Source: an uncultured Candidatus Peribacteria bacterium
GTDB lineage: Bacteria > Patescibacteriota > Gracilibacteria > UBA4473
DNA: 64,000 bases
Reading direction: 5' to 3'
NCBI GenBank assembly: GCA_964509975.1
Contig: CAZDZO010000002.1
Coordinates: 10,759 to 74,758, forward strand
This document shows positions 1 through 29,784 of the stretch, in pieces. Numbering within the stretch: position 1 is the first letter of the stretch; the number at the start of each line of letters is the position of its first letter. The notes under the pieces are model-generated. The model saw only the letters and a list, made by a program, of their open reading frames with translations. It was not told the DNA's origin and ran no database searches. The translations under genes were made by a program, and so were the position numbers.

Positions 1-546
1 ACACTGGGAATTGATCCAAAACACGCTGACCAACAAGTTCGAACAACTGTTTCTCTTCCACATGGAACTGGAAAAACGGTTCGAGTGGCAGTGTTCTGTG
101 AAGACGACAAAATCAAAGCAGCGAAGCTAGCGGGAGCCATCGAGGCAGGAGCTGGTGATCTTATTGATAAAGTTGCAAAAGGATGGACCGATTTCGATGT
201 TGCCGTTGCAACACCAGAACTTATGAAGTCTCTTGCCAAAATTGCCCGTGTGCTTGGTCCACGAGGACTTATGCCAAATCCAAAAGCAGGAACGGTAACA
301 ACTGACGTTGAAAAGGTTGTGAAAGAACTCTCTGCTGGACGAATCGAATTCCGAAACGATAAAAATGGAATCGTGCACTCACTTTTTGGAAAATTAAGTT
401 TTGGAGAAAAGAAGCTTGAAGAGAATCTTAAAACCGTTCTCAAGGCGGTAAAAGATGCTAAACCAGCTGGACTCAAAAAAGATTATTTGAAAAACGTAAC
501 TATTAACTCTACGATGGGGGCAGGAATCAAAATTAACCTTGATTAG
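1..546 (+). CDS. rplA: 50S ribosomal protein L1, 5'-truncated by the window edge
   Basis: Frame 1 is open from nt 1 (TLGIDPKHADQQVRTTVSLPHGTGKTVRVAVF...). The L1 signature therefore precedes the GTG at 85 used in the ORF track. Stop TAG at 544-546. Confidence 0.93.
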   Translation, partial: TLGIDPKHADQQVRTTVSLPHGTGKTVRVAVFCEDDKIKAAKLAGAIEAGAGDLIDKVAKGWTDFDVAVATPELMKSLAKIARVLGPRGLMPNPKAGTVTTDVEKVVKELSAGRIEFRNDKNGIVHSLFGKLSFGEKKLEENLKTVLKAVKDAKPAGLKKDYLKNVTINSTMGAGIKINLD

Positions 547-2959: not shown

Positions 2960-4630
2960 TCACTCTTTTTCCTCAAGTGACATTTTAACTTTTTGAGTGA
3001 CTTTAGATTGAACAATTATTTTCTTTTGATTAATTTTGTTTTTTATTTCCTTCAGCCGAAGTTTATTTAAATTATGAAGTAATCTCACAATTTCATGATC
3101 ATCAGAATGTTTTTCGTGTGCTATTTTACCAGAAATTGAATGTGTTTTATGTATTATATTTTTGGAAACATGTACGTGTTGTAACTCTTCTTCAATGTTG
3201 TATATTGCCTTATTAAGGTTATGAATGTGGTGAGCCCCTAAATACGGCTTCAAAATAACATAATCAACCCCCTTGTTAAAAATATCTATACCTTCTCTTC
3301 CAGAGTTGGCAGTGGCAATTACAATAGGTTTTTTTTCTTGATCCATGTTTTCTAAATACTGTAGTAAAAAATAATTATCTTCAGTATTTGGAAGTGTGCT
3401 AATAATAACTTCGGCATCTTCAAGGTTCAGTTCTTCTAAAAGCTCATAATCTTCTACATCTCCAAATAAACAATTAATTCCTCCTTTCATTAATTTTTTT
3501 ATAACTTGATTATCGTGGTCAACAACAATGTAATCATCTTTGAAACCCAAAACTTGTTCCAAAACCTGCTCTCCCATCTGCCCACAACCGAGTAAAATAA
3601 TATGATTTGAAAGTAATTCTTTTTTTGTAGAAATACATTTTTTCTTTCTAAGTTCAAAAATTGAAAGATACTTTTTTAAAATACTATAAACCCAATTATT
3701 ATAGGTAATCATATAGGAGGAAAGAACCATTGTAACTATGGCAATAATTGCAACCATAGAAACTATATTCTCTCCAAGATGTCCCAATTTGCTTCCAAGT
3801 GCAATGACGATTAATGAAAACTCACTAATATTAGCAATATTGAGTCCAGTAAAAAAAGCTGTTCGTTTGTCATACCCCATTATTCCCATAAGTAAAAGCA
3901 CAATTATAGGGTTTCCGATCAATACGAAGAGTGAAAGTACTACTAATGGTAGGATGAATGATCCTACGGAACTAAATACCATTCCTGTTCCGAGGGCTAC
4001 AAAAAAGATAGTAATGAAAAAATCTCGTAAAACTTTGGTTTTCGCATTTATTTCGAAAGTGTACGGTAAGTTAGCTAAACTAATACCAGCAATAAAAGCC
4101 CCAATTTCCATAGAAAAACCTATTTTCATTGAAAGAAGTGCAATAAGAAAACACCAACTCAAACTAAAAAGAACCAATAACTCATGTGATGTTGCTATTT
4201 TGCTATAAACATATTTAAGAACATGTTTCGATATAAGAATAGTTGCAACTGCCAAGACAGCTCCTTTTATAAAGACTCCTCCAAAATGCATAAAATCAAA
4301 TAAGAATGAACCTTCTTTGAATCCTGCAAGAAGTAATAAAGCCGCAATTGCCAAAACATCCTGAACAATCAAAATACCGATACAAATTTGACCATAAAAA
4401 GATTTTGTATCTTTTTTATCTGACATGATTTTCACGGCAATCACCGTACTTGAAAACGTGAGAGCAATTGCTAAATATATACTTTGAATAGTGGTAAATC
4501 CAAATAGTTTCACTATTAGAAATCCTATCAGTCCAGTAAAAATTACTTGTCCAATCCCTGTAACCAGTGCAACGAGTCCCAAATCTTTGAGTCGGGAAAT
4601 ATTCATTTCTAGTCCCACCAAAAACAACAT
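2960..4630 (-). CDS. CPA2 (Kef-type) monovalent cation:proton antiporter with C-terminal TrkA-N/RCK domain
   Basis: Polytopic exchanger core followed by the Rossmann motif IILLGCGQMGEQV. The frame stays open upstream to 4861 and encodes the conserved TM1-2 (ILAGILLGPSGFGLI) with no ATG/GTG/TTG, so the true start is probably upstream of 4630. Confidence 0.85.
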   Translation of the reverse strand: MLFLVGLEMNISRLKDLGLVALVTGIGQVIFTGLIGFLIVKLFGFTTIQSIYLAIALTFSSTVIAVKIMSDKKDTKSFYGQICIGILIVQDVLAIAALLLLAGFKEGSFLFDFMHFGGVFIKGAVLAVATILISKHVLKYVYSKIATSHELLVLFSLSWCFLIALLSMKIGFSMEIGAFIAGISLANLPYTFEINAKTKVLRDFFITIFFVALGTGMVFSSVGSFILPLVVLSLFVLIGNPIIVLLLMGIMGYDKRTAFFTGLNIANISEFSLIVIALGSKLGHLGENIVSMVAIIAIVTMVLSSYMITYNNWVYSILKKYLSIFELRKKKCISTKKELLSNHIILLGCGQMGEQVLEQVLGFKDDYIVVDHDNQVIKKLMKGGINCLFGDVEDYELLEELNLEDAEVIISTLPNTEDNYFLLQYLENMDQEKKPIVIATANSGREGIDIFNKGVDYVILKPYLGAHHIHNLNKAIYNIEEELQHVHVSKNIIHKTHSISGKIAHEKHSDDHEIVRLLHNLNKLRLKEIKNKINQKKIIVQSKVTQKVKMSLEEKE

Positions 4631-6403: not shown

Positions 6404-9400
6404 TTAAAGATTGTCAACTGTCTGAGTACTTTGTTTGAGATCGATGGGAGCATTCTCCCCCACTGAGATAGTAAAGCTTCCCAAAACAGAATCATCAGTA
6501 TTAAGAATCTCAAAAACAACAGGATCTGTTTCTCTTTTTGTTGCTTGAATTTGAAGACGAAGATTTCCATAAAAATCCCCTCTCCTATCAATGAGCGCGA
6601 GTGGTTGTCTTCCTTTCACTAAAACATTTCCCTCACTGGTTGCAGAGAAATAAATAGTGTCTTGTGTATTGCGATCAAGAACGTGTACCGCTGGTTCCAA
6701 TTCAAATACAAGTTCTTCTGTGTCGAGAACAACATCTTTTTCTCCAGGGATAACAAACGACACAATTGCCATGGGAGCATCTTGTTCATTCCGAAGCAAA
6801 ATTTGCGTAGGATGAATGTTATTGGCGGGGAGAACGGTAATATCAAAAAGATCGTTATAGAGAACAGGTCTTCCATTTTCCAATACCTCAAAGGCTTCTT
6901 CTCCTGTGAAATCCTTAATCTCAATTCCTCCACTGGTATCGAGTCCTGACAGATCAAAGTCTCCAGAATCATTTGTCACAATAGGTTCTTCACGAATCGA
7001 TTCCCAAACACCTCGTCTATTGCGTTCAACAGTAATAGGAATATCCGCAATACCTCCTCGTACTCCTCCTTTGACCTTACTCGATCGTACAGACGCTTCT
7101 TCTATTTTTGGAATAGGCGTTCGCACTATTACTTCAAGTTCTTCTGAGGCTCGATTTCCCGGTTCATCTTCTACATGCAACATAATGTTAAACGTACCTT
7201 CTTTTTCGTAGGCAGGGAGTTCTACTTTCAAAAGATCACGAGGTAGATAATATTTTTCTTCGTTTGGATCGGGAAAATCCTGATCATTGGTTGGGTCGCC
7301 ATCTTTATCCGCATCATAATGTGGATATAAATCCCACCAAACACGTTCAATATTGTGCTCGCTGTCTTTTGTTGGAGATGCGTCCACAAAGACTGGTTGA
7401 AAGGCAAGAGCGCTTATTTTTGATCCTCCCACAAGTGAAATATCTGGTGGCGTCACATCATCATCACCTTGTGGATCATGAAGATATTTTGAAACAAAGA
7501 AACTATCCCCTTCTTTGGTGAAAGCTTGAAACGCTCCATATTGATTCTTTTGCTTTAACAATTGAAAAGCTCGAATGAGTTCATCTTCTTCTTCAAAGAC
7601 ATATAATGTGTAATTTTCATTTGGATAAATAGTAATTTGTGTTTCATCAAAGAGTTCCAAAATTACTTGATCATTTGCCCCTAGTTCCATACGAGATCCA
7701 GAAGGCAAATAAGTATTGGCGCGTGGAGACACTTTTTCTGTTGTCATCATATCGATACGTTCCACATTTCCTCGAGTGAGACAAACTTCTCCGTATTCCA
7801 CAATGGTCTCTTCTCCTTTGTGAAGGACTTTTTCTTCAACCTGCTCTGGACGCCCTTCTCTGGGCGGTACACGAATTTCAAAACGAGAATAGTTATCAAT
7901 CCCTACAAGAAGCGATTCAGTTGCATAGAATGGCTTTTCTTTTTCTGGATTATCACAGTCTTTTTGTTTAAATCGCGGAATTGCCTCAGCAGGTGATGAG
8001 TAGAGAATTGGAGATCCTTTTATCCTTGTTATTTGTGTCGTCATAGGACGAATTTCATATCGTGTTGGAGCTGGTCGAAGTAAAAATGCGTGTCTATTCC
8101 ATTGTTCTGATTCTCTGTTGGAAAAATCCTCATCGTATTCAAAAATGAAATCTGGACGATCCGTTACTACCCATTCAAAGTAAGAAGTTCCATTTGAAAT
8201 TCGTTCAAACTGGAATGTTGTTCCTGTGGCCTCAAGGGAATCTTGAATCGCACGAGCCGGAGCAAATTTTTCGCGAAATGTTTCATAGTCCCACTCTGTA
8301 AAGTTTCCGAATCGATCATCATAATTGTCATCATGTTTTTGCTCATATTTCTTTTCCAAATCATCTTCATCGATATCCGGTGTTACTCGATATTTCAAAA
8401 ACAATTCACTTTCCAGTGCGAAGAGAACTTCTTCATTATGATCATCTCCCAAATCTGCAAAAGTATACGCCGTGAGATCATCCAACGGGAATCCTGTCAC
8501 GCTTTCTGATTCCCCTGTCTCTGGATTGAAATAATAGACATCTGGTTCTTGTTCGAAATCTGCAAGCTGTGCCGCTCTAAACGCATCCGTATCAAAGTCT
8601 GTTGGCGCTTCTGTCGGAATTGCCCCTACGTCTACAACAGAGGTCAACCATGTAGAAAATCGTTTTGGATTTATTGTTGAAAAGACATTTGTTTTAGGCT
8701 CGACTAATTGAGCCACCCATCGAGCAGAAGATTGGATCGTTGCCCACATTCGTTTTTCTGTACTTCCTTGCTCGATTCTTACTGGAGAAGGCATGGTTCC
8801 ATTTGCGACAATGGAATATTTCACTTCAGAAGTTTTGTAATTTTCCGGTTGATAAGAGAAAACGCCGGCGCCAGAAAAAGAACAATTATCTGGTGGTGGA
8901 GCTCCTCTCAGAATCTCCCCCAAAGATCCCACCAAGCATTCATCAAATTCCTGCAACACTTCTAAACTTTCATTTAAAATCTCAAAAATAAGTGTCGGTA
9001 ATTTGATGTGCGCTTCTACGGTAATCTCCACATCATCAATCTGTGGTACCTGTGGTGCATTAAGAGAAAATGATGGAAAGGTAAAATCGATACCCCACAA
9101 GAGAGTTCTGTTTGTAATTTGTTGCACATGTCCAGCGAGCGTGTTTTCCGGAATTGTGAGGAAATTCTGCACAATCAAACAAAATAGTTTGAGGAACATC
9201 TTGAGCAAATCAAAAATGGGTCGAATTGTCACAAATAAATCAGGTAATACGGGCGGATCAACAAGTACTGGCAGATTAGGAAGTTCCAGATTTGGTATCT
9301 GAATATTGACACTAATATCTGGCATTTTTGGCAGCACTGGAATAACCGGAAGTCCTGGTACATTTACTTGTAAATTCACCTCTGGTGGGGGTGGAATATC

Positions 9401-12400
9401 AGGATAGGCCATTTGCACCGGTTGGAGTTCTACTTCTGGAATAGGAAGCTCCAGCGAAATATCGATACGAGAGAAATCCATAAATATATCCGGCAATCGT
9501 GGAGCTGGAATAACGGGAAGTTTTATACTTCCCAAAAGAAGGTTAATCAAAACGGTTGTACTTGATCCTCGCTCTACAGAACAAGTCGGACAGTCTGCTT
9601 TGAAGTTTGTGAAAGCTTCTAAAAGAATACCAAAACTCGCAAAGAACTCTTTTATCTCTTCTTTAAATTGTTTCCATTTATCGATAGCGCGATCATTCGC
9701 CTCTAACCATTCAAAGACATACGTCTCAATTGCTTTTGCGTATTTCTCAAACTGTTTTCCAAGCTGCGTAATCTTTCCTTTTTCTTCATCATAAAGTTCG
9801 CGCATCATTTTTGGGAATTCTTCATAAGATTTGATGGCATCCCAGTTATTATCGAGAGCTTGAGCATTTTGTTCCACTGAAGAAATGAATTCATCAAAAG
9901 CCTCAATATTTTTAAGATACTTTTGACAACTTTCACTGGTCATTTGTCCTTTACAAGAAGATTGATAATCCGCCTTCGCTTCTTGCTTCTGTGTTTTATA
10001 TTTATCAGCTGCATCTTTCCAAGCTTGAATCTGCATCTTATATTTCACTACCTCGAGATTATCTCCATCGGCATTTTTCTTTGGAAATACGGGATAAGGG
10101 AAAGTATATCGTTTCGGAGTGACGGTTATCCAAGATTTTTGTTCGAGTTTTTTCCAAAGATTTCGTCCCAAAACTTCTGAATTTGGAGAAAATAATGGAG
10201 ATACTTCTTTGTCTTCTTGTTCTTTTTGTTCTTCCGATCGCATCTGTGGAAGCTTTGGTTTCCAAAGTTTTGGAGTTGGAAGTTTGATATTATTAAACTC
10301 GTCTTTTTGTGCATCGATCCAATCTTGTACGACTTCTGTCGCATGAATGGCTATATTGGATTTATATTTTTTAAAATCTGGTTTGAATTCGGATGGATTA
10401 AAATCATCAATTATATCGCGAAGTGAATCTTGTGTCTCACTGGATTGACCGCCTCCGCTACTATCTGACGGACAAGCGATACTTCCTAATGCCTGAAGAA
10501 TCGGAATATCAACTACAACACAATTTCCTAATGGATACTGTGTTACATCGCCAATCGCTGGAAGTAATCCACAAAATCCCAACGCTAAGTGTGCTGACGT
10601 TGTCGGCATCGTATAGAAACGGAAAACAGAGGATTGATAGGCTGTTGCTGGAGTGAAAGGAGGACAAAATCCTGCTGTAGCAACACAGGTTACCGGATCA
10701 ATTGTAAGTGCTGGTAATGGCGTTGGGAACTTTGGAAGACTGATAATAGCAAAAGGAGGCACATAAAGCGTTTGTTTTCCAGGAGCAAATGGCGGAATAG
10801 CAATTGAAGGGATTTTTGCCGCAAGCCCACATCCTCCACAACTCAAAAGTGACATCTTCACCTTTTGATTAATAATTCCAAATCCATCCCACGTGGGAGG
10901 AAGTTCATCTTCTCCATTTTCTCCCGTTCCCACACCTTTCCCCTCTCCGCCAGCCCCTTCATTTCCATTGGCACTTCCTGTTTTATAAAGATTCATATAT
11001 TTTTCTTTCGCCAGTGGTGTTGGGTCTGTTGGAGTTGTGATTGGCACTATCTTCTGCCCATGAGGAAATTCTGTTCCATTATGATTTGGCGTAGAAGAGA
11101 GATATTGAATCATTTGTTTCTCTCCATCTTGTTCCCATCCAATAAGGATATCATCTAATCCATCATTAATATCAAAATCAAATACCTCGAATTCTAACGG
11201 AGTTAGTTCTGCAACTGTCAGATTCCATGTCATGAACACTTCTACTCCAGAGGAAAGTCCTTCCTCTTTGAGATAGCCCCAAAGTTCCATATCATCAGGC
11301 ACTTCTTCACGGAACGCAATTTCTCCATTACAGCCATTACACACAAAGGAGTCTTTTACATACTCCATTCCCTGCATATGTGGAATAAGAAATTCGAAAT
11401 TCTCAAGAGCCATCTTTGGGGTAAAAGATACCCCTGCTTTTAGCGTATTTCCTTTTTGAAGTGGCCCCGTTTCTTCTTGTTCAAGTGTGAATTCTGCATC
11501 TATTTTCATTTGAAATGGGATTTCCAAAAACACTGTCTGGAAATCACCCTCTCCCAATATTTCTTCTGTCATAATCGCTAATTGCTCTTGTGACGTCTCT
11601 GCTCCTTGTAATGACTTTGTAATGTCCTCAAGCTTTTCTGTTGAAACCGGAACACTTCCAAAATTGAGATGCAGTCCCCCTTCTCCCAAATTCCGTTGGA
11701 AAGCATCTTCTGGAAGTTTCTCTTCACTCTGAAGAAATTTTATTGCTTTATCCGGAGTCTTCTCCGTAATATCCTCTTTAATTCCCTCATAAGATACAAA
11801 GATATTTTCAAGATTTGGAAATTTCTCTTGTTCAAGATAAATACGACGATTCCAATCCTGCTCTTTAGCAACTTCATATATTTCTTCTATAGGATCAAGT
11901 GTTGGCGCAAAACTTTCAATATGTTCCACGGGAGAGAATTTACCTACATTTTTCGTTCCCATTGCTGTCCAAAGGCTCTTTTCTTCATCTGCAAAAGTCA
12001 GATCATCTAAATATCGATCTCCGTTAAAATCTCCTACATAGATTTCTTTTATTTTTCCTTCAAACTCCCCCAAATCAACTTCTCCTTCTCTTGAGAACGT
12101 TCCATTTGTATTTTTGTGCAATAGCAACTTTCCTTCTCCATTCAACTGCAAGATGTCTACAAAATCATCATGGTCATTATCAACCAAAAGAACTTTGGAA
12201 ACGCCATCAGCAAAGCGAAGAAGCGGGCCTGTGTCACGAAAATTATCAATTTCACTATTCTCTTGATAGAGCGCAAATAAGGTGTCTCCCACCAAATTCA
12301 TGATATCGGGCACCCCATCGGCATTCAGATCTCCCACAAGAATTTGTTCTATCGATCCATCTGGACTTTTCCAAATTGGTTTTCCGATATCATCGGTTAA

Positions 12401-15400
12401 TCCATTATCTGAAGCAGTATTTGCGGTTGCCAAAGTGGCCGTAGGGTCTCCGAGCAAGATAAAGGCATCACTAGAATTCCATTTTGTCGAATCTCCTACC
12501 ATATTTCCTGCCGCAAAAAGAGCGGCTGGTTTCCAACTTTTTTTCCAAAGAATATCCGGATCATTCTGTACATCTTCGGCAGATAAATGAGGAGCTCCCA
12601 GCATCCGTGAAGGCGATTCTTCTTCGTTAGGATCAATAAGCACTAATCCACGATTGTCATTTGTTGATGCACCGGTAAAGGCTTCTGCTATTTGAATATC
12701 TTTGACTTCTATGATTACAAAAATTCCTTCTGACAAAGACGAAATCCTATTGAGGGATTCTACTTCAACAATACTTTCTTGTGGTGACACAACCGTAATT
12801 GTTCCTATTTTCTTTTTTCCCACTACAACGGTCGTCTCGAGGAAAGAATCTCCTTCAATAGTGAAAGTAGCGCCCCCTTGCACTAACTCAATCCCTCCAC
12901 TTGCGTGCACTGAAAACACATGATTTCCTTCAAGAAGTATACTGTCTCCTTCTCGTTTCAGGATATCAATTTGATCTTCTTCGGGCACAAAATAGACCCC
13001 CGGCAATGTCCCCTTCGCACGAGTCACGAAAAACTCTGCTGGTTCTTTGAATTTCACAAAGGCCTTTCCAAGTGATCGAATACTGTCTTTCAAATCAACT
13101 GTGTACAGGTTTTGTCCCGTACGCACCTCCGCTTCGATCTCTCCTGTAAAGTATCCATCCCCGGCCAGGTATCCAATACGTTTTTTTGCTTCTGGAGGAG
13201 TTATTAGTGTCCCCACCGCTTGAGACGATCCGGCAAAAAGAAAGGCACTCGCAATATTTTTATCCGTTAATAAATCTCCTCCATCAAATCCAAGGAGCAA
13301 AGAAAAGAGTGATTTCGGTCCGAGTTCTTCAATTTCTTCTGTAGTGAGATAATCAGTGACTGTAAATTCTATCGTTGAGGGCACAAGATTAGGTGCCTCG
13401 ACACTCATGAGTATCTTTCCAGTGCCTGTTCCCGACGGAGTAATTTCCAACGATCCTTCTCCTCTCAAAAGATTCAATGACCAGCCATTTTCTGTTTCGA
13501 GCAAACTCGTGTCAGGAGACGTCCCTGTTGCTCGAGCAGCCTCAGCAGCTTCTTCCAACGCCAATTGTGCTCCACTGGCTTCTGAAACCACACCCAGTTC
13601 CACAAGCGCATCTCGATCACTTGAAGTTACATTTCCCGGTTGGTTTGGCAATAAATATATCTTTTTATTAAATGTGGTATCAATATTTCCAAATTGATCA
13701 ACAACTGTCACATCAAGATTTATTTCTGCATTTTCATCTTCTCGATCCATTGTCACAGAATCGCTTGCCGTTAAGATTTTTACGGGATCATCTGGTGCTA
13801 CTTCGAGTTCCACCATGCCATTTTCAAATCCAGAACTGGTAAAAGACATTATTGTTTCTCCAGATTTTGTTCCTGCAAAAAAGGAAAAATCTCCAATCCC
13901 TTCTTTGAGCGTGAGGTTTTCTTGAAACTGTCCAATGCCTTCAGGATTCGCAAGCACCCCCACTTCTAAATCATAATTAATTCGCTTTCCTTCCTTTGTC
14001 TCAGCTCTGACGAATAATTCGAGCGGATTTTCTGCCCCCGCTTGTGTTTTTGTTTTTGGGGCTTCAATACGAAGAACCACTTTTTGTGGAACCTTGAATA
14101 TTTGTTTTTGTGAAATTTCTTCCAAAGGAAGCTTGAGAGAAACTGTTGTTTCTGCAAAAGGAAGTTTTTGTTCTGGACGCACAAATATTTTTGATTTCCC
14201 ACTTATCATTGGCATTTCAAATTGTTCAGGTGACGCAACATCACGTACCTCCAAATTATGAGTTGTCCACGTAAAGATGCCTTGCTCTGGAACATTATTT
14301 CCAAATACATCAATTGCTTGTGCCGTAAGAGGAACAAATTGAGAATCGTGCACAAGAATCTCTGTACGAGATTCAAGAACAATATCCGCAATTTCTCCCG
14401 GAAGAATTTTTATAGATTCTGTGACAATCGGAAGCAATCCTACGGTGTCTTTGAGTGTTATTTTGGCTTCTCCTGATCGAATCCCCGGATAAAAAATGAT
14501 TTCCGCCCGTCCATTTTTTATCGTTACATATCCTTTATTTCCAAAGGTTCCCCAGGCGGACTCAAAAAGCAACATACCACCATCTCGATTCTTGGAAGTA
14601 TATCCGTCGGGAGTCGTTATCTTGGCTTGAAGAAGCATTCCTTCTTTGTTATTTACCACCACACGCTCTTTTTCTGGAGAAAAAGAAAGTCCATATTTTG
14701 AGACATTTACCGGAATTGTCTGGAGAACTTTTCCGTCTGATTTCATTTTCATTTCAAACTTTCCTCCCACATCGTTGTCTTTGGGGAAAAGTGTAAAGAT
14801 CGCTTTACCTCCAATAACCGGTGCTTGCTCTCCTGGGAAAACATCAAAGAATTTTTGTCCATTGGAACTATCGAATTCCAATTCAATCGTCTGATCATCT
14901 CCTGATTGCACACTCGTGCCTGCTTTGTTTTTAAGATCTACTTCAAGAATCACGGGGCTCATATCACCGGCTGCCACGTTAATCTTCGGAGTGGAAACTT
15001 TGAGTGCGGTTACTTTTTCTCGAACATCTTTACTCTTATCGGAAGGAGGAATAACGGTAAATTCTTCTACTGACTGCTCATTAGAAGAAGATGATTCTTG
15101 TGAACTTTCATCAGAAGAACTTTCTTCTGAATTTTCAGAAGGAGGAGGGTCCGGCAGAACCGTAAACTTCTGCATCAAAAATGCTGGCAACCCCGTCAAC
15201 CATCCTAAAAAGCATGGAAACCAAGCAATGACATTTTTTCCGCTACATTGAGAAAGACTGCTTTTTTGACTTTCAAAATCAAAATTATTTTTCGCTTTTT
15301 CATGGAGATCTTTCACCTCCGCCCCATCATTAAAAGAGAACTGTGCTTCTTTCAATCGTGCGTCTTGAAAGGCTTCCCCATCGGGATCATCTCCTTGCTG

Positions 15401-17890
15401 AAATCCTGTCTGAATCCCCTGCTCTCCCGTTTTTCCGTCTTCTGCTTTTTCAGCCACAATGCTCATGAGTTCGTATCCATCATGAAAATCATCATCTTGC
15501 ATAAATGCCCGTGCCTCTTCCACAGGAGAAATGGCTATCTCAAAGGTAATTCTATTTTTTTCTTCAATATCTTTATCTATCCAAATAATCGAATTCACTA
15601 CTTCCCGTAGATCGTTGGTGTAGGCTTCAAAAACATCTGACGAAATAGCTCCTCCTGCGCTTGCCGCATTAATTTCTGCTATTTTTGATTGCAGTTCGTC
15701 CAGAATTTCTTGCTCGAGAAGTTCTTTCCGTGCTTCTTCATCTTCCACTTCTGCGTGTCGTCCTATAAACTTAAACGCATTAAAATAATCAATCCGGTGA
15801 AAATCCCATCCTGCATCATAGAATGAAAATCCTCGTGGCTTGTCTACAGGAAGGGCAACGCTTCCCCCATCTTCCATCTGATGAGCAATTGTACTGACCG
15901 TTGGTTCAACATGAAGAAACAATGAATCAATAGTTTTATCTCCACTTGCATCGAGAATGTCTTCACATCCTTGTGCTCCATAATTTCCTGTCAGCATTTC
16001 TTTGGTTCCTGTGATATCGAAGAGGGGTTCTGTGGCTCCTACATGTTCTCGATACTGATTGGTGAGTGTCGGATCGTCATCATCCGCTGGAGGATAAGGC
16101 GTCAATACTCCCAATCCCAGATAATCACGAGTAACCCACTCTGATCCCGTTTCACAATAATCATTTTCATAGTTCAAAGGATCTGTCGTAATTTCTATAT
16201 TAAGAGCACAACACGCTTCAAAAACATCTTCATTGATATCAATATAATTTTTTGTTTCATCTTCGTCGTCATCGTCATTCCACCAAGAATTAAGCGCTCC
16301 CCAATTGGGAGGATTATCTTTTACATTTTCACAAAGCCTGTCGGGATCTCCCGCACTAGGATACTCCTCATCACTCGTTTCTCGGTTATAAGTTCTATTC
16401 GCCTCTACCATCTGTGCATGGGGGTAACTCGTCGTTCGTGGAGTTCCTCGTAGAAGTGAACAATCATCAACATCCATATCGGCTCTCAGAACCCCATTCC
16501 AATACAGATCTTTTTCTCGAGTCTGCGTCATAGGAATAGGAGGGGCCGGCAAAGGCATTGGGATAATATAATCTATATCCACGTCTTCTGTTGTTTTTAC
16601 TTTAATATCTCCTGCTACATTACTTGCTACCAACGCAGTATTAAGAACGCCTTCTAGTTGATCATTAAAGTTTTTGAGAGTTACAGCTGATTCTTCGTCT
16701 TTTTGAGAAATAAGAATAATAGTATTCTCAGAATCCTCAGGACCCCATCGCCCCCCTTCTCCTATTTTGTCGTTATCCAAAGAAAGTTTCCCTTTCCATG
16801 TTTCATAATACCGTTTCATAGCACTCTCAATTATAAGTTTTGTATGAATATCAGGGACATTTGTCATCAAATCTCCAGGAGGAGTAGCATCTGCTGGTGG
16901 TCGCATGTTTTCAGCAATAACACTGGTATCAATGATGTCTTCTGGTCCTAAAAGATTCATGACTTCTTTTGCCCAGTGTTTGGTGTAACGCATGTACGCA
17001 ACGTCTTCGATGTTATCGATCCACGTCTGATATTTTTGAAGGGGCACATCACCAAGTCCTTTTGCTTGAGATTCTGATAAATCTGCTGAAAAAACATTTT
17101 CTCCAAATGTTTCCGTTCCCTGATGCACCGCATCATTTGTCTGCAAAAATCCCCCAAGTTCATCATTTTGAAACTCTTTTAATTTGTCAGCATCCCATCC
17201 CTCATCTTCTCGTGATGGCGAACGGAGTACACCATGCCAAACTTCTGGCTGATGTGTCGCACCCCCTTTGAACACAAAGCGTTCTTTTTCATAATCCCAT
17301 TCGTACACCGGATCTTCGAAGTCCACATACGGAAAAACTGTTGGCCAGAGATTGCCTTCTTTCTCCACCACTGGCAATGGAACGTCTCCAATAAGGATGG
17401 TTCCCACAAGTTGAGAACGTCCATCAAAATTTACCCCTGAAAAATACAAATGCGCATTTCCTTCGTAAATATCGAGAGGTGAAGCATCTTTGGGGATAGG
17501 AATAAATATCACTTCTCCATTCACTGCTGTTTCGACATTCGTGGCATATTTCTTAATTTTGTATTCAAGATCCAAATCCTCAAGCAAACTTTCCTCCACT
17601 AAAAAAGAAACCAGTCTATCTCGTTGAACCTCTGGAACGGAAGAAGATTCCCAAAACCCAAAGAGAGCCTGTGCCGGAGGCGAAAAAATTGGCATCAAAA
17701 GTACTCCAATAAGAAGCACTGCTAAGCGCTTCTTCCAAATTATCTTTGGAGAAGAGAGAATGCTCCACAAGTTCCCTGACTGCGCAGGGACAAAATTCAC
17801 CAATAGCTTCAAAAAACTCCCCTCCCGAGGAAGGTATTTTTTTTCAGCTGGTATCATTTTGTTTATTTTTGTTTTTACAAAGAAAAACAT
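6404..17890 (-). CDS. giant secreted multidomain surface protein (3,828 aa)
   Basis: Uninterrupted 11.5-kb ORF. N-terminal signal/anchor (RLAVLLIGVLLMPIFSPPAQA). Ig-like repeats about 13350-15020 and FG-GAP/VCBS-like DxNxDG repeats about 11990-12345. Cys/Pro-rich hydrophobic segment about 10440-10860, LPxxP proline-rich segment about 9240-9560, PKD-like segment about 7100-7330. Alternative ATG at 17857. Confidence 0.85.
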   Translation of the reverse strand: MFFFVKTKINKMIPAEKKYLPREGSFLKLLVNFVPAQSGNLWSILSSPKIIWKKRLAVLLIGVLLMPIFSPPAQALFGFWESSSVPEVQRDRLVSFLVEESLLEDLDLEYKIKKYATNVETAVNGEVIFIPIPKDASPLDIYEGNAHLYFSGVNFDGRSQLVGTILIGDVPLPVVEKEGNLWPTVFPYVDFEDPVYEWDYEKERFVFKGGATHQPEVWHGVLRSPSREDEGWDADKLKEFQNDELGGFLQTNDAVHQGTETFGENVFSADLSESQAKGLGDVPLQKYQTWIDNIEDVAYMRYTKHWAKEVMNLLGPEDIIDTSVIAENMRPPADATPPGDLMTNVPDIHTKLIIESAMKRYYETWKGKLSLDNDKIGEGGRWGPEDSENTIILISQKDEESAVTLKNFNDQLEGVLNTALVASNVAGDIKVKTTEDVDIDYIIPMPLPAPPIPMTQTREKDLYWNGVLRADMDVDDCSLLRGTPRTTSYPHAQMVEANRTYNRETSDEEYPSAGDPDRLCENVKDNPPNWGALNSWWNDDDDEDETKNYIDINEDVFEACCALNIEITTDPLNYENDYCETGSEWVTRDYLGLGVLTPYPPADDDDPTLTNQYREHVGATEPLFDITGTKEMLTGNYGAQGCEDILDASGDKTIDSLFLHVEPTVSTIAHQMEDGGSVALPVDKPRGFSFYDAGWDFHRIDYFNAFKFIGRHAEVEDEEARKELLEQEILDELQSKIAEINAASAGGAISSDVFEAYTNDLREVVNSIIWIDKDIEEKNRITFEIAISPVEEARAFMQDDDFHDGYELMSIVAEKAEDGKTGEQGIQTGFQQGDDPDGEAFQDARLKEAQFSFNDGAEVKDLHEKAKNNFDFESQKSSLSQCSGKNVIAWFPCFLGWLTGLPAFLMQKFTVLPDPPPSENSEESSSDESSQESSSSNEQSVEEFTVIPPSDKSKDVREKVTALKVSTPKINVAAGDMSPVILEVDLKNKAGTSVQSGDDQTIELEFDSSNGQKFFDVFPGEQAPVIGGKAIFTLFPKDNDVGGKFEMKMKSDGKVLQTIPVNVSKYGLSFSPEKERVVVNNKEGMLLQAKITTPDGYTSKNRDGGMLLFESAWGTFGNKGYVTIKNGRAEIIFYPGIRSGEAKITLKDTVGLLPIVTESIKILPGEIADIVLESRTEILVHDSQFVPLTAQAIDVFGNNVPEQGIFTWTTHNLEVRDVASPEQFEMPMISGKSKIFVRPEQKLPFAETTVSLKLPLEEISQKQIFKVPQKVVLRIEAPKTKTQAGAENPLELFVRAETKEGKRINYDLEVGVLANPEGIGQFQENLTLKEGIGDFSFFAGTKSGETIMSFTSSGFENGMVELEVAPDDPVKILTASDSVTMDREDENAEINLDVTVVDQFGNIDTTFNKKIYLLPNQPGNVTSSDRDALVELGVVSEASGAQLALEEAAEAARATGTSPDTSLLETENGWSLNLLRGEGSLEITPSGTGTGKILMSVEAPNLVPSTIEFTVTDYLTTEEIEELGPKSLFSLLLGFDGGDLLTDKNIASAFLFAGSSQAVGTLITPPEAKKRIGYLAGDGYFTGEIEAEVRTGQNLYTVDLKDSIRSLGKAFVKFKEPAEFFVTRAKGTLPGVYFVPEEDQIDILKREGDSILLEGNHVFSVHASGGIELVQGGATFTIEGDSFLETTVVVGKKKIGTITVVSPQESIVEVESLNRISSLSEGIFVIIEVKDIQIAEAFTGASTNDNRGLVLIDPNEEESPSRMLGAPHLSAEDVQNDPDILWKKSWKPAALFAAGNMVGDSTKWNSSDAFILLGDPTATLATANTASDNGLTDDIGKPIWKSPDGSIEQILVGDLNADGVPDIMNLVGDTLFALYQENSEIDNFRDTGPLLRFADGVSKVLLVDNDHDDFVDILQLNGEGKLLLHKNTNGTFSREGEVDLGEFEGKIKEIYVGDFNGDRYLDDLTFADEEKSLWTAMGTKNVGKFSPVEHIESFAPTLDPIEEIYEVAKEQDWNRRIYLEQEKFPNLENIFVSYEGIKEDITEKTPDKAIKFLQSEEKLPEDAFQRNLGEGGLHLNFGSVPVSTEKLEDITKSLQGAETSQEQLAIMTEEILGEGDFQTVFLEIPFQMKIDAEFTLEQEETGPLQKGNTLKAGVSFTPKMALENFEFLIPHMQGMEYVKDSFVCNGCNGEIAFREEVPDDMELWGYLKEEGLSSGVEVFMTWNLTVAELTPLEFEVFDFDINDGLDDILIGWEQDGEKQMIQYLSSTPNHNGTEFPHGQKIVPITTPTDPTPLAKEKYMNLYKTGSANGNEGAGGEGKGVGTGENGEDELPPTWDGFGIINQKVKMSLLSCGGCGLAAKIPSIAIPPFAPGKQTLYVPPFAIISLPKFPTPLPALTIDPVTCVATAGFCPPFTPATAYQSSVFRFYTMPTTSAHLALGFCGLLPAIGDVTQYPLGNCVVVDIPILQALGSIACPSDSSGGGQSSETQDSLRDIIDDFNPSEFKPDFKKYKSNIAIHATEVVQDWIDAQKDEFNNIKLPTPKLWKPKLPQMRSEEQKEQEDKEVSPLFSPNSEVLGRNLWKKLEQKSWITVTPKRYTFPYPVFPKKNADGDNLEVVKYKMQIQAWKDAADKYKTQKQEAKADYQSSCKGQMTSESCQKYLKNIEAFDEFISSVEQNAQALDNNWDAIKSYEEFPKMMRELYDEEKGKITQLGKQFEKYAKAIETYVFEWLEANDRAIDKWKQFKEEIKEFFASFGILLEAFTNFKADCPTCSVERGSSTTVLINLLLGSIKLPVIPAPRLPDIFMDFSRIDISLELPIPEVELQPVQMAYPDIPPPPEVNLQVNVPGLPVIPVLPKMPDISVNIQIPNLELPNLPVLVDPPVLPDLFVTIRPIFDLLKMFLKLFCLIVQNFLTIPENTLAGHVQQITNRTLLWGIDFTFPSFSLNAPQVPQIDDVEITVEAHIKLPTLIFEILNESLEVLQEFDECLVGSLGEILRGAPPPDNCSFSGAGVFSYQPENYKTSEVKYSIVANGTMPSPVRIEQGSTEKRMWATIQSSARWVAQLVEPKTNVFSTINPKRFSTWLTSVVDVGAIPTEAPTDFDTDAFRAAQLADFEQEPDVYYFNPETGESESVTGFPLDDLTAYTFADLGDDHNEEVLFALESELFLKYRVTPDIDEDDLEKKYEQKHDDNYDDRFGNFTEWDYETFREKFAPARAIQDSLEATGTTFQFERISNGTSYFEWVVTDRPDFIFEYDEDFSNRESEQWNRHAFLLRPAPTRYEIRPMTTQITRIKGSPILYSSPAEAIPRFKQKDCDNPEKEKPFYATESLLVGIDNYSRFEIRVPPREGRPEQVEEKVLHKGEETIVEYGEVCLTRGNVERIDMMTTEKVSPRANTYLPSGSRMELGANDQVILELFDETQITIYPNENYTLYVFEEEDELIRAFQLLKQKNQYGAFQAFTKEGDSFFVSKYLHDPQGDDDVTPPDISLVGGSKISALAFQPVFVDASPTKDSEHNIERVWWDLYPHYDADKDGDPTNDQDFPDPNEEKYYLPRDLLKVELPAYEKEGTFNIMLHVEDEPGNRASEELEVIVRTPIPKIEEASVRSSKVKGGVRGGIADIPITVERNRRGVWESIREEPIVTNDSGDFDLSGLDTSGGIEIKDFTGEEAFEVLENGRPVLYNDLFDITVLPANNIHPTQILLRNEQDAPMAIVSFVIPGEKDVVLDTEELVFELEPAVHVLDRNTQDTIYFSATSEGNVLVKGRQPLALIDRRGDFYGNLRLQIQATKRETDPVVFEILNTDDSVLGSFTISVGENAPIDLKQSTQTVDNL

Positions 17891-17956: not shown

Positions 17957-20900
17957 TTAAACAGTTCGCGCGTATTGTTTGAGTGCCTGTTCAATCGCTG
18001 TCGTATCACCAAAAAGTGTGACATTCACGTCTTCTTTTGTCATAAGTTCTTCAGAAAGAGAATTCATCATTGCATATTCACTCGTAGAGTCTTTCTTCGC
18101 CAAATCTTTTAATTGTTCTCCTGTGGCTCCATGATCGTATCCTTTGAAATCAAGTATTTTTTCATATTTTCTTTTTAATTCTTCATTTCCACTTTGATTA
18201 AACATAATGCGAGCAAATTTATTGACTTTTTCTTTATTTTCGAGCATTGCAAACGAATATCTCGTTTCTCCTTTTTCCCAACGATCTTTTCCAAAAATCA
18301 TTGGACGCGCATGATAAGAAGTAAAATTTCCCAATAAAGCTTGCATAAGTGTCATTCCAACTTTTAATCGTCCTCCTACCTCCATCAAAATACGCTCTTT
18401 TTCTTTTCTCCACCCAGGAGTTCCTCCAAATTCTTTATCTCCATTTTCGATGTATTCATTCATCATCTTCATGTAATTCGGGAATGAAGAAATAAATGTT
18501 CGCCAAAAATCGGGTGAATTCTTTTCCGTACCTTCTGATCGTTGTCCAAGCTGAGTCACGAGTTGTCGCTGATCCCACTCTAGGAAAAATGCCCAGGCAT
18601 CATCATGATCTCCTTCTTTGTCTGCAAACCGTTGCATTCGTTGCACACGATCGCGAGCAAATTCAGACATGTGAATATAGTGGAAGAAAAATCGTTCAAC
18701 CGTTGGTTCTGCATTTCGAGGATTAAAACTTCCTCCAGCACTTCCCATAAATTTCGCCCATTCTTCAAAATCACTTTGTTTCCAATCGCGCTTTTCTGCT
18801 CCTGGAAAATCTTCCGGAACAATTCGTCCTTTATATTTTGGAGAACCTTTGTCTGAGAAAAATTCCACATGTGGAAATCGCACCACAAATTCATCTCCAA
18901 AACTATTGAGCACATCTCGTGAAAGCAAAGTTTGTCCGGTACTCGGATTTCGCAACGTCATCCCTTGAATCAAGAAATAAAATCGTCCATCTGGATTCCC
19001 ATTCATTTTTCCTTTAATAAACGCCTGCTTAAGGAATCCTGCAAAACGCGCTGGATCACACTGTGCTGATTCTCCTCGCCCCCATCGCTGAAGCATTCCC
19101 GCCAAAATATCAAAACGAGCACTTCCATCATTTTCATACTTTCGGAAATCCTCTGCATATCCGTCTTGTGCTTTTTTTAAATTTCCTTCAAGCGATTTAT
19201 CCCAGTCATCAAAAATTTCTGTTGTCCAAATAATAGAGGCTGCTTGAGAAACCTTTTCTCGAATTTGATATGGTGTAAGCGACATATCTTCGTCAAGATT
19301 AAATTGCACCGTTCTCTGGAGTTTATTAAGAGCTCTCCAAAGAAGTGGATCATCCCATTTAAGATATCCTTTTTGACTTAGCAAATTAATACATGCACGC
19401 ACCTCATCTGGATTATTTGATCGACCAACGGCCGCCCAAATCTCCCATCCAGGACTGTCATGATATTGTGTTTGAAATTCTTTCATTCGAGCCGTCTCTG
19501 ATTCTTCTTGCATACGGTGAAATTCTTTTCCAAACCGATTATTCTTTCCCCAAAACCCACTTCCAATCTGTGCTACATTTCTGTCCGAATTCCGTTTCCA
19601 GTGCTTATTTGCCGCTTCAATAGAAGTTTTAAAGGTTAGATAGATGTCATACAAAGAAAATTCCTTTCTTTTTCCTCTTCTATTTGTTTTCTTTTTACTT
19701 TCATAATCTGCGAGCCATTCTTTAATTCCCGTCGCCTGACTTCCACAAGCCTTTGCAACTTCTGCAATTCCTTCAAGATTTCCAAACTCAATAAGGGCTT
19801 GATTTTTTTGTTCTGGATTTTCTGATCCCAGTCGAGACAACCATCCTTGGAAATACTCCTCATTCCCAAGACGCTCTCCCCAAACAAAGGAAAACTCATT
19901 TTTTTGTTCCTGATGTTGTGCAATAACATTAAGAGCTTGTGTTGGATCCATTCCATATTTTTCGTGGAAAGCATTTTCTGTATTTTTTCGAATATCTCTT
20001 TCTATAATTTCAATAACCTTATCAACATTTTCCTGATAAATTCTAAATTTCTCATTAAAATCATTTCGCACTCTTTTGAAATTTGTTTCAAATGTTTCTT
20101 TTCCCTCAAAATATCCATATTTTTTAACATTCGCGAGTCCAGCATTTGGTCCTACTTCTATATCGCGATTACTCCCATTTTCATCAGTTATTTGAATTGT
20201 GCCGCCAAGATCACTTTCGGAAGCTCTTGTTTTTTCTTCTGCAAGAATACCACTTCGAACATTCATTAAATTCCTGAGACCATCTAAACGTTCTCTTATG
20301 TCCAAAATATGACTTTCCTGCTCTAATCGCCCTGGCTCCTTTAATTGTTTAAAAAGCGTATCAACATCATCAACAACTTTTAAAATCTTTTCAAAATAGT
20401 TTTCTAGAAATGCTTTTTTTGGTGAGTCCGGACTTTGTGCATTAACGCCAAAAATGTCTTCTGCAATGTCTCTCATCAGAGAAACTTCTCCCAGAAGTTT
20501 GTATTTCATTCTTGTTTCCCAGTCATTTACAAATTCCCCCAAACTCTCGGTTATTTCCTCTTTTACAATTTTTGGATCAATGTCTTCTCTTCCTGTTGAA
20601 ACGCCTACCATTTCACTATGCAATACTTGCAAGGTGTCTTGCAAAAATTGTGTCGTTGTTTCTGTACGATTTGAAATTCTCAATGTTTGCAGTCCCAAGT
20701 TATTTAATTGTGTTCTTCCCGGTAAATAGACCTCTTCCTCTGTGCCAGGATCGGTAATTACATGGCCCTCCTGTGCCCATTCAACCCGAACCGGAAAAGT
20801 CTGTTCAAAAAGAAGTCGTTCACTCAGTGCGGTTTTTAAATTTTCTTTTATTTCTCCCTCTTCAAGTTCTTCTAGTACAATATCCAATAATTCTTCTATA

Positions 20901-23576: not shown

Positions 23577-25703
23577 TTAGTCGTTGTTTTTTACAATTTC
23601 AAGTGTTTCTTTTTTGTTATCACCTTCTCCTGTTGTATTTCTGCTGAATTTATTCTTTTCTGCATAGCTTGCACTTTCAAGTTCTGTAAGGATTTCTTTT
23701 TCATTCTTTATAATCGCTTCTTTTATAGAGGTGTTTGTTGTTTCATTATAATATTTCTTAAGATCATCCAAATTCTTAAATTCTTGTGAAACACTTTTAT
23801 CTTCGTTATTTATGGTTATTTTTTTACCATCATCATCCGCTACTACTTCAATTTTATTTGTATCTGTTTTCTTTTTCCCTTCGTAATCAGAAGTTTTTGC
23901 ATTATTTCTTCCTCCTTGCTCAGCTATCCAAAGCAACGCTGTTTCCACTTTGTCTTCATTACCACTTGTAAAATTAGTCTTCATATTAGTATACCCCGCT
24001 AAACTTGAAACCTTAGGAAATTGCTTTTCAAGTTTTGCTATAACATTCTTTGATTCTGGAATATTTCCTGAGTAGAACTTTGATCCTTGTTCAGAATTAA
24101 CAGCTTTGTCATCTATCATTTTAAAAGCAGCCATTGCATCACTCGCTCCTTCTATGTTGGTTCCTAGTTCATTAAACGCCTTTGTTAATTCTGTTGTAGA
24201 TTTATTAAACATATTAATTCCATCTGGTCCGGTAAAGCCTTCATAATCTTTCGATATTTTATCCGAACGAAGTTTCACCATTCCTTGGTTGAGTGTTCTC
24301 ATTAACGTAGTAGTTGATACCCCTTGTACTCCTTTCTCCCCAGGCATTGGGAAAATCTCCCGATCGATTGTTCCAGCCTTCGCAAGAAACGCACCAGCCC
24401 CTTCTGCTCCTCCTTTAATCTTGTTAATAACGCCTTCGGCCACTGATCCTTCAAGTGCCCAAAAAGCGGCTTTCCAGAACACTACAATCGTAGCAATAGA
24501 CCACAAAAGTCCATATCCACTCGCGCCAAATGTCGATACTGAAGAACCCGTTCTTATAAAGTCTCCACTCGGTCCTCCTCCAAGATTTACCATCGCATCT
24601 ATCATTAAGAAACTCACGGCAAATGCTGCTGCAATCTTGAGTGGCATAACCACACTTGTCACAACCATTTCACTAATTTTCCCACCGCTTCCTTTTCCAA
24701 ACCCCATTATTGATCCCGCAATAAGAAGTGGTGAAAATACCATCGCAATCCAGAGCACCACCATCCGAACGAGAAGAGCAATAAATACCGCTGCCAAAGC
24801 AATCACTTGCGCCAAAGATAAAATACTCACAAACAGCACACTCGTGAATACATCGCCCCAATCGTTCAATCTCGCCGTAAGAGAGGGCATGTCTTGAATT
24901 CGATTGAACTGGATTCCGAAAGCAATAAAAAGGTTCTGTGCGGCTTTGCTTTTTGAGCTCGAATCGGCCGCATTCTGTGGATCAATGGCAAAAAGACAAT
25001 CTTCTGGAAGTGCCGCTGACCCTTTTACTTTTGTATCTTTGTCTCTTATTTCTGTTACTGGATCTTCCCATTTCCCTTTTCCACACATAAGATCATTAAT
25101 CGCTACAAAGAACGGTTCATAACTCACAACCCCATCTTTATTCACGGCTACATCATTTTTCAAAGCATCTTGAAGACCAGCTTGCCCCTTTGCTCTTGCG
25201 GTACTATCCGGAATCGCAAATATAGTAATCGCTCCAACATGCACAGCATCCAAAACAACTTTAAATCCTAAAAGTGAAAAGTTAATAGCAATCAGTGCCA
25301 AAATAACATTCGGAAGTTGTTTTTTTATAGTCCAATTTCCATCCCCTCCTTTAAAAGAAGAAAATAAGTTTGAAAATGCCAAGAAAATTAATACCAATAC
25401 AAAGAGTGCATTCGTAATATTTCGAATAATCACCCACATTGGTCGAATCGCAGCCATTGGTTCTGGAGCCGTCAAAAAATCCGTTCCCACCAAATCCCCT
25501 CCATAATTGATAAAAACCAAAGAAAGAAACGTAAAAATATTTACAAAAACCGAAAAAATCTGTGCAAACGCTTTCAATGTCTCATTATCATTCCCATCTG
25601 TTAGCGCAAAAGCCACATCAGGACTCACGAATTGCCCCACTACGAGCGCTATAATAAGCGCTACAACAGTTTTTGGAGAAATGAGTTTTCGTAAAAATTT
25701 CAT
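23577..25703 (-). CDS. polytopic membrane protein (708 aa) with signal peptide, large external loop and hydrophilic C-terminal tail
   Basis: Signal-like N-terminus (VVALIIALVVGQFVSPDVAFA), at least 8 hydrophobic helices in two blocks, and a K/E/N-rich tail. The topology resembles VirB6/TrbL-type proteins (weak inference). Confidence 0.8.
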   Translation of the reverse strand: MKFLRKLISPKTVVALIIALVVGQFVSPDVAFALTDGNDNETLKAFAQIFSVFVNIFTFLSLVFINYGGDLVGTDFLTAPEPMAAIRPMWVIIRNITNALFVLVLIFLAFSNLFSSFKGGDGNWTIKKQLPNVILALIAINFSLLGFKVVLDAVHVGAITIFAIPDSTARAKGQAGLQDALKNDVAVNKDGVVSYEPFFVAINDLMCGKGKWEDPVTEIRDKDTKVKGSAALPEDCLFAIDPQNAADSSSKSKAAQNLFIAFGIQFNRIQDMPSLTARLNDWGDVFTSVLFVSILSLAQVIALAAVFIALLVRMVVLWIAMVFSPLLIAGSIMGFGKGSGGKISEMVVTSVVMPLKIAAAFAVSFLMIDAMVNLGGGPSGDFIRTGSSVSTFGASGYGLLWSIATIVVFWKAAFWALEGSVAEGVINKIKGGAEGAGAFLAKAGTIDREIFPMPGEKGVQGVSTTTLMRTLNQGMVKLRSDKISKDYEGFTGPDGINMFNKSTTELTKAFNELGTNIEGASDAMAAFKMIDDKAVNSEQGSKFYSGNIPESKNVIAKLEKQFPKVSSLAGYTNMKTNFTSGNEDKVETALLWIAEQGGRNNAKTSDYEGKKKTDTNKIEVVADDDGKKITINNEDKSVSQEFKNLDDLKKYYNETTNTSIKEAIIKNEKEILTELESASYAEKNKFSRNTTGEGDNKKETLEIVKNND

Positions 25704-28748: not shown

Positions 28749-28772
28749 GAAATTTAAATTCAAAATCAGAGA

Positions 28773-28781
28773 ATTATACCA
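28773..28781 (-). promoter_or_regulatory. extended -10 box heading the giant-gene cluster
   Basis: Minus strand TGgTATAATTCTCTGATTTT. The same 20-mer recurs at 47040-47059 (+) and, 17/20, at 60941-60960 (-). Confidence 0.45.
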
Positions 28782-29777: not shown

Positions 29778-29784
29778 CTCAGAG

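Follow-up and report, generated by a model that had tools for sequence, protein, structure and literature searches.

The giant gene and its modules

The window analysed here, i.e. a stretch of 64,000 nucleotides from an uncultured Candidatus Peribacteria bacterium (assembly GCA_964509975.1, contig CAZDZO010000002.1, positions 10,759 to 74,758), harbours an uninterrupted open reading frame (ORF) at 6404–17890 on the minus strand, whose translation comprises 3,828 amino acids (aa). A first-pass annotation had described the product as a secreted protein with an unusual mosaic of adhesin-type, hydrophobic and proline-rich segments, and both the ORF and every landmark listed in it were found where that annotation had placed them. 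Our analysis assigns this giant protein (hereafter the query) to one large, lineage-restricted family and points to a probable role in attachment to host or prey cells.

The giant ORF is a real gene. NCBI, JGI, ENA and Logan together hold 10 independent contigs that encode an identical protein, the largest of them 473–484 kb in length, and relatives at 72 % and 55 % identity show a near-equal length and the same module order; therefore, the ORF is not an assembly artefact. That it arose from a chimeric join, from fused genes or from another error of assembly or annotation, a concern already raised in the first-pass annotation, is extremely improbable: the 10 contigs come from several pipelines, more than 100 full-length homologues are collinear, and GC content and skew are uniform along the gene. 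Nothing was found in favour of such an artefact, the sole open point being the exact start codon. Public gene calls start the protein at M12 (17857; 3,817 aa) and homologue alignments begin only at around aa 49; the true start is uncertain and may possibly lie as late as around position 17770. It is strongly acidic (net charge −304), with a predicted mature form of around 3,750 aa. Self-BLAST revealed no internal sequence repeats, and a PDB sequence search with the whole protein gave no match. Its modules, partly delimited on AlphaFold2 (AF2) models, are as follows.

6404–17890 (−): giant protein, whole ORF, 3,828 codons counted from the first ATG
17666–17743 (−): cleavable Sec-type signal peptide, aa 50–75 (KKRLAVLLIGVLLMPIFSPPAQA, followed by LF), Kyte–Doolittle peak 1.85
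17201–17623 (−): N-terminal alpha/beta head, aa 90–230, delimited by AF2 (pLDDT around 90), Foldseek and conservation
15251–17200 (−): remaining conserved N-terminal region, aa 231–880, a helical subdomain and Cys-containing beta subdomains
15044–15250 (−): lineage-specific hydrophobic patch (aa 887–905), unconserved in the family, and Ser/Glu-rich linker (aa 918–936)
13301–15043 (−): stalk of around 5–6 diverged Big_1/invasin-type Ig-like domains, aa 950–1530, from homologue matches
12386–13300 (−): conserved beta-rich region, aa 1531–1835, ending in an invariant LLGDPT, from the family alignment
11921–12385 (−): FG-GAP/VCBS integrin-alpha-type blades, aa 1836–1990, three DxDxDG calcium loops and a profile match
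10886–11920 (−): variable acidic region, aa 1991–2335, low family coverage, net charge −44
10451–10885 (−): Cys/Pro-rich hydrophobic beta unit, aa 2336–2480, conserved FRxYxxPTxT...C.GP and around 6 Cys
9593–10060 (−): bundle of three long antiparallel helices, aa 2612–2766, from AF2
8900–9592 (−): signature core, aa 2767–2997, with CxxC, beta hairpin, PxLP, amphipathic helix and PVPE...IEQLTxR
7541–8899 (−): clade-specific region, aa 2998–3450
7121–7333 (−): TSP3-like calcium loop (DADKDGD) and PKD-like domain, aa 3520–3590, from a profile match
6407–7120 (−): C-terminal beta-rich domains, aa 3591–3828, the true C-terminus in the query's clade

The hydrophobic segment near 17690–17760, previously read as a signal or anchor, is present at aa 50–75 and is followed by an AxA-type cleavage site (...SPPAQA/LF, the slash marking the cut), so that the mature protein would begin at around aa 76. 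The same n-h-AxA Sec signal layout is present in all family members, which bears out the claim of a secreted protein, and the query is predicted to be exported via Sec. None of the 110 family members carries the class III motif of pilins (G/FTLxE) within its first 120 aa, so a reading of these proteins as modular pilins was discarded.

The head is the best-conserved module at every evolutionary distance compared (85, 74, 60, 60 and 53 % identity). It carries the motifs LxGxxLIGDVPLPVV, FPYVDFE and PEIWHG, with LVGTILIGDVPLPVV located at aa 161, and residues L161, P171, P173, P187, D190, E216 and H219 are invariant. The loose resemblance to gingipain-type C25 domains noted in the first-pass annotation finds weak support at the level of the caspase–hemoglobinase fold: a Foldseek search of the head against PDB, based on an AF2 model of the N-terminal 800 aa (pLDDT 76, pTM 0.63), returned the gingipain RgpB as top neighbour (4ief_D, probability 0.96, E 0.073, TM-scores 0.14/0.25), followed by caspases; LIGD..P.P and WHG recall the C25 strand and His motifs. 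The likeness does not extend to the enzyme: Peptidase_C25 (PF01364) matched only one of 23 homologues (E 0.016) and not the query itself, the N-terminal profile matched no PDB sequence, aa 76–476 of the query contain no Cys, and the position of the C25/caspase nucleophile, after the next strand, is occupied by D, N or G in all 23 sequences and never by Cys. His219 is invariant, yet a His-Cys catalytic dyad is lacking. Since the Cys nucleophile is absent, a C25 peptidase was rejected, and the modelled head is at most a degenerate, gingipain/caspase-like caspase-fold domain.

Downstream of the conserved N-terminal region, the Ser/Glu linker that had been placed at around 15050–15160 was found at aa 918–936 (15083–15139). 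The five invasin-type Ig repeats proposed to follow it stood the comparison with homologues and not a search of the query itself: among the homologous Ig segments, PF18565 was detected in 8/11, Invasin_D3 in 5/11 and Big_1 in 2/11, and in one relative (P0032, mapping to query aa 940–1359) PF18565 and Invasin_D3 exceeded the Pfam cut-offs with 83.8 and 41.7 bits, respectively, whereas none of the three families was detected in the query at E≤1 (whole protein) or E≤0.01 (segment), the repetition being one of structure rather than of sequence. D-x-FGN motifs lie at aa 1190 and 1394 of the query, and D-x-[FY]-G-N is an invariant motif, with positions 1194/1198 and 1398/1402. Such motifs within a tandem Big_1-clan Ig-like stalk are also common to the invasin/intimin adhesins; the giant protein differs from these by lacking a beta-barrel anchor, LysM and a C-type-lectin tip, and by a stalk that accounts for only around 15 % of its length. 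The profile of the Ig region weakly matched an S-layer protein (4uid, E 0.0066).

The FG-GAP/VCBS repeats are well supported. DxDxDG-type loops lie at aa 1853, 1903 and 1953, and the profile of this region matched the chain of a secreted esterase (8w20, E 2.9e-12), integrin alpha-6 (2.2e-5) and BBS7 (3e-4) in PDB; FG-GAP_3 on the query itself scored 22.8 bits (E 1.4e-4), against a cut-off of 26.9 bits. Calcium-loop blades and profile matches to integrin alpha-6, integrin alpha-4 and CRTAC1 are thus shared with the integrin alpha/FG-GAP propellers, of which only around three clear blades are recognised here. A DADKDGD loop with a PKD-like module had also been proposed, and both were confirmed: the loop is located at aa 3526, and the family profile of the adjoining domain matched collagenase PKD domains (4aqo, E 7.5e-5; 4jrw, 1.4e-4), with PKD_4 matching 7/13 homologues and the query at only E 0.076. 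The DxDxDG and TSP3-type loops suggest that the protein binds calcium.

The Cys/Pro-rich block and the LP.IP tract begin at aa 2350 and 2791, respectively, by motif search, and the block and the PxLP prolines are conserved in the family. The AF2 model of aa 2336–2997 (pLDDT 70) starts with small beta units (Cys/Pro block) and a disordered Ser/Gly linker, continues with three helices (segment positions 283–316, 324–370 and 377–437; pLDDT 83–92), i.e. a coiled-coil-like bundle that bears out the coiled coil noted earlier after the Cys/Pro block, and ends with the CxxC, a beta hairpin, the PxLP tract, an amphipathic helix and PVPE...IEQLTxR. The CxxC is nearly invariant, the PxLP tract is extended and confidently placed with invariant prolines, and the amphipathic helix carries a conserved Lys and Cys. 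For the core, profile and AF2 model alike gave nothing beyond generic helical-bundle noise in PDB and BFVD, a viral structure library.

Contrary to the first-pass annotation, we do not read the hydrophobic segments as transmembrane helices; we conclude that they are amphipathic or buried parts of an extracellular protein. The hydropathy peaks of the core are marginal (1.55–1.75), and the core helix is amphipathic with a conserved Lys. The peak at aa 887–905 is confined to the query's own lineage and was rejected as a conserved transmembrane helix. Since conserved Cys flank the hydrophobic segments on both sides, the whole chain would be extracellular.

A lineage-restricted family with a diagnostic core

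A homology search returned 110 proteins of 2,300–5,900 aa, whose named members are nearly all from Gracilibacteria, Peregrinibacteria, Absconditabacteria/SR1 or 'Patescibacteria', the exceptions being one labelled Pseudomonadota and a few labelled only 'bacterium'; the closest genome records are metagenome-assembled genomes (MAGs) labelled Candidatus Peribacteria or Gracilibacteria. NCBI names the family members 'integrin alpha FG-GAP' or 'VCBS repeat-containing' proteins. In the alignments, family members are collinear with the query and the module order is fixed. What had appeared as an unusual mosaic is therefore a conserved architecture, and the comparison of domain order with giant proteins from other Candidate Phyla Radiation (CPR) bacteria yielded more than 100 collinear relatives of 3,000–5,900 aa. 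The order is signal, head, Ig-like stalk, FG-GAP blades, core, and PKD-like and beta-sandwich C-terminal domains. Three anchors, at aa ~90–300, ~1750–1970 and ~2650–2950, occur in nearly every member, and a fourth, at aa ~3450–3800, is conserved in about half of them.

A scan of one genome per GTDB species yielded 143 encoded relatives, and 80 loci were retained; these are nearly all from Gracilibacteria/Peregrinibacteria/Absconditabacteria lineages, with a few labelled only 'Patescibacteria group' or 'bacterium'. When the core profile (aa 2749–2997) was searched against 1.84 billion representatives, it matched 486 clusters (formed at 50 % identity), of which 320 reached E≤1e-30. The core-bearing proteins are nearly all 3,600–6,066 aa long, with the core at around two-thirds of the length, and shorter matches look like contig fragments. 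Since the core is confined almost wholly to giant proteins of these lineages, the sequences indicate one large family with a diagnostic core domain, apparently restricted to the Gracilibacteria/Peregrinibacteria–Peribacteria/Absconditabacteria branch of the CPR.

The main difference in architecture concerns the C-terminus. Peregrinibacteria relatives extend past the end of the query with SLH and TSP3 repeats; SLH was found in around 35 distant members, e.g. at aa 3779–3824 of P0032, and a Pfam scan detected none in the query.

Conserved gene neighbourhoods

The giant gene closes a run of five same-strand genes in the window, n184-n817-n708-n1852-giant.

28245–28799 (−): n184, two-transmembrane hairpin
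25785–28238 (−): n817, two hydrophobic segments
23577–25703 (−): n708, polytopic, signal and around seven transmembrane segments
17957–23515 (−): n1852, 1,852 aa, no signal or transmembrane segment, C-terminal ~700 aa conserved

Part or all of this order recurs in five to six other genomes and is kept even where the giant protein is only 23 % identical. Between the window and the 55 %-identical relative, n1852 and n817 are only around 30 % identical, compared with 84–87 % for the flanking housekeeping genes; judged by these identities, the cluster evolves fast. Homologues of n708, which has a Cys-containing loop, number 51, all named ones from Gracilibacteria-labelled MAGs. In the Peregrinibacteria and SR1 loci, a hidden Markov model of the n708 family found no remote copies beside the giant gene. 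NCBI labels one n708 homologue (P0136) a 'type IV secretion system protein', which neither NCBIfam and Pfam nor a PDB search with n708 itself reproduced. The E/K-rich n1852 lies between the seven-transmembrane n708 and the giant gene, and its C-terminus gave no match in PDB. Since its divergence is odd for a cytoplasmic protein, n1852 may be an exported effector or a component of a machine.

A second layout was found in Peregrinibacteria/Peribacteria, where the giant gene is the terminal gene of rplJ-rplL-u426-u203-PilB-PilC-(1–4 pilins)-giant. The cluster from rplJ through PilC to the pilins lies directly upstream at L002 (1144–9885) and at around 30 other loci (L023–L084). PilB/PilC are encoded upstream on the same strand in 35 loci, 32 of which belong to the 51 whose upstream sequence spans at least 6 kb, and in nearly all of the PilB/PilC loci pilins immediately precede the giant gene. 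Six more loci with short flanks have pilins only, directly upstream, and pilins are adjacent in around 38 related loci. In SR1 and in the window's clade, the giant gene is not preceded by a pilin gene. The pilus-linked members are also those that bear C-terminal SLH and TSP3 repeats. Pfam gave no match for u426, u203 or the downstream genes; u426 and u203 may be divergent PilM/PilN/PilO-type components.

SR1 genomes share a third conserved layout; in two of them, which use genetic code 25 (L004 23816–25188 and L088 23229–24619), the giant gene is followed by genes for a protein of around 290 aa and one of around 157 aa with a weak T4SS_pilin (PF18895) match and, further on, by convergent genes for proteins of around 700, 400 and 490 aa, a TPR gene and SecY.

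The five-gene cluster adjoins the secE-nusG-rplK-rplA region (window 85–546 (+), compared with L001, L087 and L002), while the Peregrinibacteria cluster sits by rplJ-rplL instead. Since both lineages have the cluster next to genes of this kind, the linkage to the ribosomal-protein region seems ancient despite rearrangement.

The window as a whole is around 90 % coding with a GC content of around 39 % and uses the standard genetic code, an alternative code being rejected as TGA ends 7/38 ORFs. Its genes are of the CPR type with small genomes, e.g. L1, DnaE, SecA, GyrB, a PilT-like ATPase, two pilins and DUF5671. The pilin genes with an N_methyl motif, 50419–50997 (−) and 51121–51723 (−), and the PilT-like ATPase gene, 34524–35594 (−), are dispersed 17–33 kb from the giant gene. 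A gene for a CsaB-like polysaccharide pyruvyl transferase, 42706–43584 (−), adjoins one for a GT4 glycosyltransferase, 41046–42215 (−), despite the giant protein being free of SLH; CsaB-like pyruvyl transferases are the enzyme type that makes the SLH ligand. Upstream of the glycosyltransferase, 38482–41041 (−) holds three ORFs of 192, 381 and 280 aa that overlap or abut; each has an N-terminal hydrophobic segment and no Pfam match, and together they may form an envelope operon. Around 1 kb upstream of the five-gene cluster, 29848–30822 (−) encodes a secreted 324-aa protein, extremely charged, rich in E, K, R and M, of low complexity and with no domain match, and a nucleotidyl-transferase gene (28839–29804) lies between the two.

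A probable attachment fibre of host-dependent bacteria

In our view, it is fairly probable that the giant protein is a secreted fibre by which these host-dependent CPR bacteria attach to host or prey cells, and that it acts together with type IV pili. Its Ig-like, FG-GAP and PKD-like modules are of the adhesion type and count for attachment, and the signal peptides, conserved Cys clusters, CxxC and acidity count for export. The SLH of distant members, the linkage to pilus genes in sister lineages, the conserved five-gene operon and the fast divergence of the cluster also speak for this reading. Export via Sec would give a cell-surface fibre of around 3,750 aa. In the sister lineages, the C-terminal SLH would anchor it to the wall, so that the conserved head would be distal and point outward. 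In the query's genome, which lacks SLH in this protein, docking or export would fall to the seven-transmembrane protein, which is probably co-transcribed, and to its partners.

Fibres of comparable design are known. The giant RTX/BIg adhesins, such as SiiE, LapA and MpIBP, are acidic, calcium-binding attachment fibres of Ig repeats that are secreted by type I secretion systems, and the SPEARE proteins are signature giant proteins of ultra-small episymbionts (Nanohaloarchaeota). Compared by description only, the query shares with the former the giant size, acidity, calcium binding and Ig-like attachment fibre; it differs in having an N-terminal Sec signal instead of a C-terminal one, lacks RTX repeats and is not highly repetitive, and neither an RTX Pfam match in the query nor ATP-binding cassette or membrane fusion protein genes in the operon were found. 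With the SPEARE proteins, likewise compared by description, it shares the standing of a signature giant protein of such cells. Closest are the integrin alpha FG-GAP/VCBS proteins of Peribacter riflensis, Gracilibacteria and Vampirococcus, which have been listed singly as hypothetical (PMC4736985, PMC11452946, PMC8080830) and have in common with the query the lineage, the size class (1,200–4,200 aa), the FG-GAP/VCBS and Ig-like labels and the attachment role. For Vampirococcus and Peribacter, giant surface proteins have been suggested to serve attachment (PMC8080830, PMC4736985), and related VCBS proteins were detected in Gracilibacteria metaproteomes (PMC11452946). Among the papers covered by our search, none describes a single collinear family, its N-terminal head, signature core or operon contexts.

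Several observations weigh against an attachment fibre that works with pili. The pilus linkage is missing in the window, in the SR1 loci and in 14 other loci. No anchor, i.e. SLH, LPXTG or a transmembrane segment, was found in the query, and in Pfam and NCBIfam searches with the full-length protein only FG-GAP_3 and TIG matched, both below threshold. Pfam, NCBIfam and PDB sequence searches gave no match for n184, n817, n708 or n1852. In addition, the best-conserved module is the putative distal head, which is atypical for the tip of a host-specific adhesin and hints at an enzymatic or machinery-binding role. It is this unusual conservation of the head that keeps the following alternatives alive.

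The giant protein might instead be a structural component of the cell's own envelope, i.e. an S-layer-associated scaffold or a spacer of the coat. The SLH of many Peregrinibacteria members, the weak match of the Ig region to an S-layer protein, the CsaB-like pyruvyl transferase encoded in the window, and an architecture conserved across the lineage with a highly conserved N-terminal domain all fit such a role. We nevertheless regard it as doubtful, since SLH is missing from the query and its clade, since binding proteins are where FG-GAP, PKD and Ig-like modules typically occur, and since the family diverges quickly in comparison with neighbouring genes; moreover, lattice-forming S-layer proteins are unlike a single giant subunit of around 4,000 aa. 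Somewhat less likely still is that the protein serves a type IV filament machine as partner or cargo, either as a PilY1-like factor acting with (minor) pilins or as a substrate that a pseudopilus resembling that of type II secretion systems would push through the wall. Like the PilY1/PilC adhesins, the giant proteins of many relatives are large and encoded straight after pilins, as the terminal gene of the rplJL-u426-u203-PilB-PilC-pilins operon in around 30 genomes; PilY1 carries a calcium-binding propeller-type module, which has a counterpart here, and the conserved domains at the N- and C-terminus could serve as docking sites for conserved machinery. On the other hand, the query has no PilY1 domain (PF05567) and the family no class III signal, its members are 3–5 times larger than PilY1/PilC, the C-terminal SLH anchoring occurs in exactly the pilus-linked lineages, and the linkage is missing in the window, where the pilins are 33 kb and PilT 17 kb away.

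It is also tempting to speculate about a device for feeding on, or penetrating, the host, in which the conserved hydrophobic Cys/Pro unit, the long helical bundle and the amphipathic helix would rearrange and enter the envelope of the host. The core, universally conserved and family-specific, is hydrophobic to a degree unusual for a surface protein, it has no fold relative in PDB or BFVD, and the lineage's cultured relatives live as predators or episymbionts with no feeding structure known (PMC8080830). Given that the hydropathy peaks are marginal, that the helix carries a conserved Lys, that AF2 packs the core elements into a folded domain and that the protein resembles neither pore formers nor fusogens, we consider membrane activity of this kind very unlikely. 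The boldest version, about equally improbable, takes the core, with its disulfide-rich hydrophobic beta unit, helix bundle of around 150 residues, CxxC, PxLP tract and amphipathic helix, as a new envelope-penetrating or membrane-active module which, together with the gingipain-like head, would form a contact or feeding organelle of Gracilibacteria, Absconditabacteria and Peregrinibacteria; such an organelle would be deployed with a dedicated type IV filament machine in some lineages and with the seven-transmembrane/1,852-aa system here.

If the giant protein were only an adhesin, the annotation would be useful but incremental. Little is known of how CPR episymbionts and predators recognise their hosts, hold on to them and exploit them, and for the Gracilibacteria/Absconditabacteria/Peregrinibacteria branch there are almost no functional data. 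Proteins so far scattered as 'hypothetical giant proteins' are here united in one defined family with a diagnostic core (around 486 clusters), a conserved head and two conserved operon contexts, a type IV pilus operon or a membrane-protein cluster. The family may serve as a marker for the comparative genomics of host association, and its core, head and operon contexts are targets for localisation and knock-down in the few co-cultures available.

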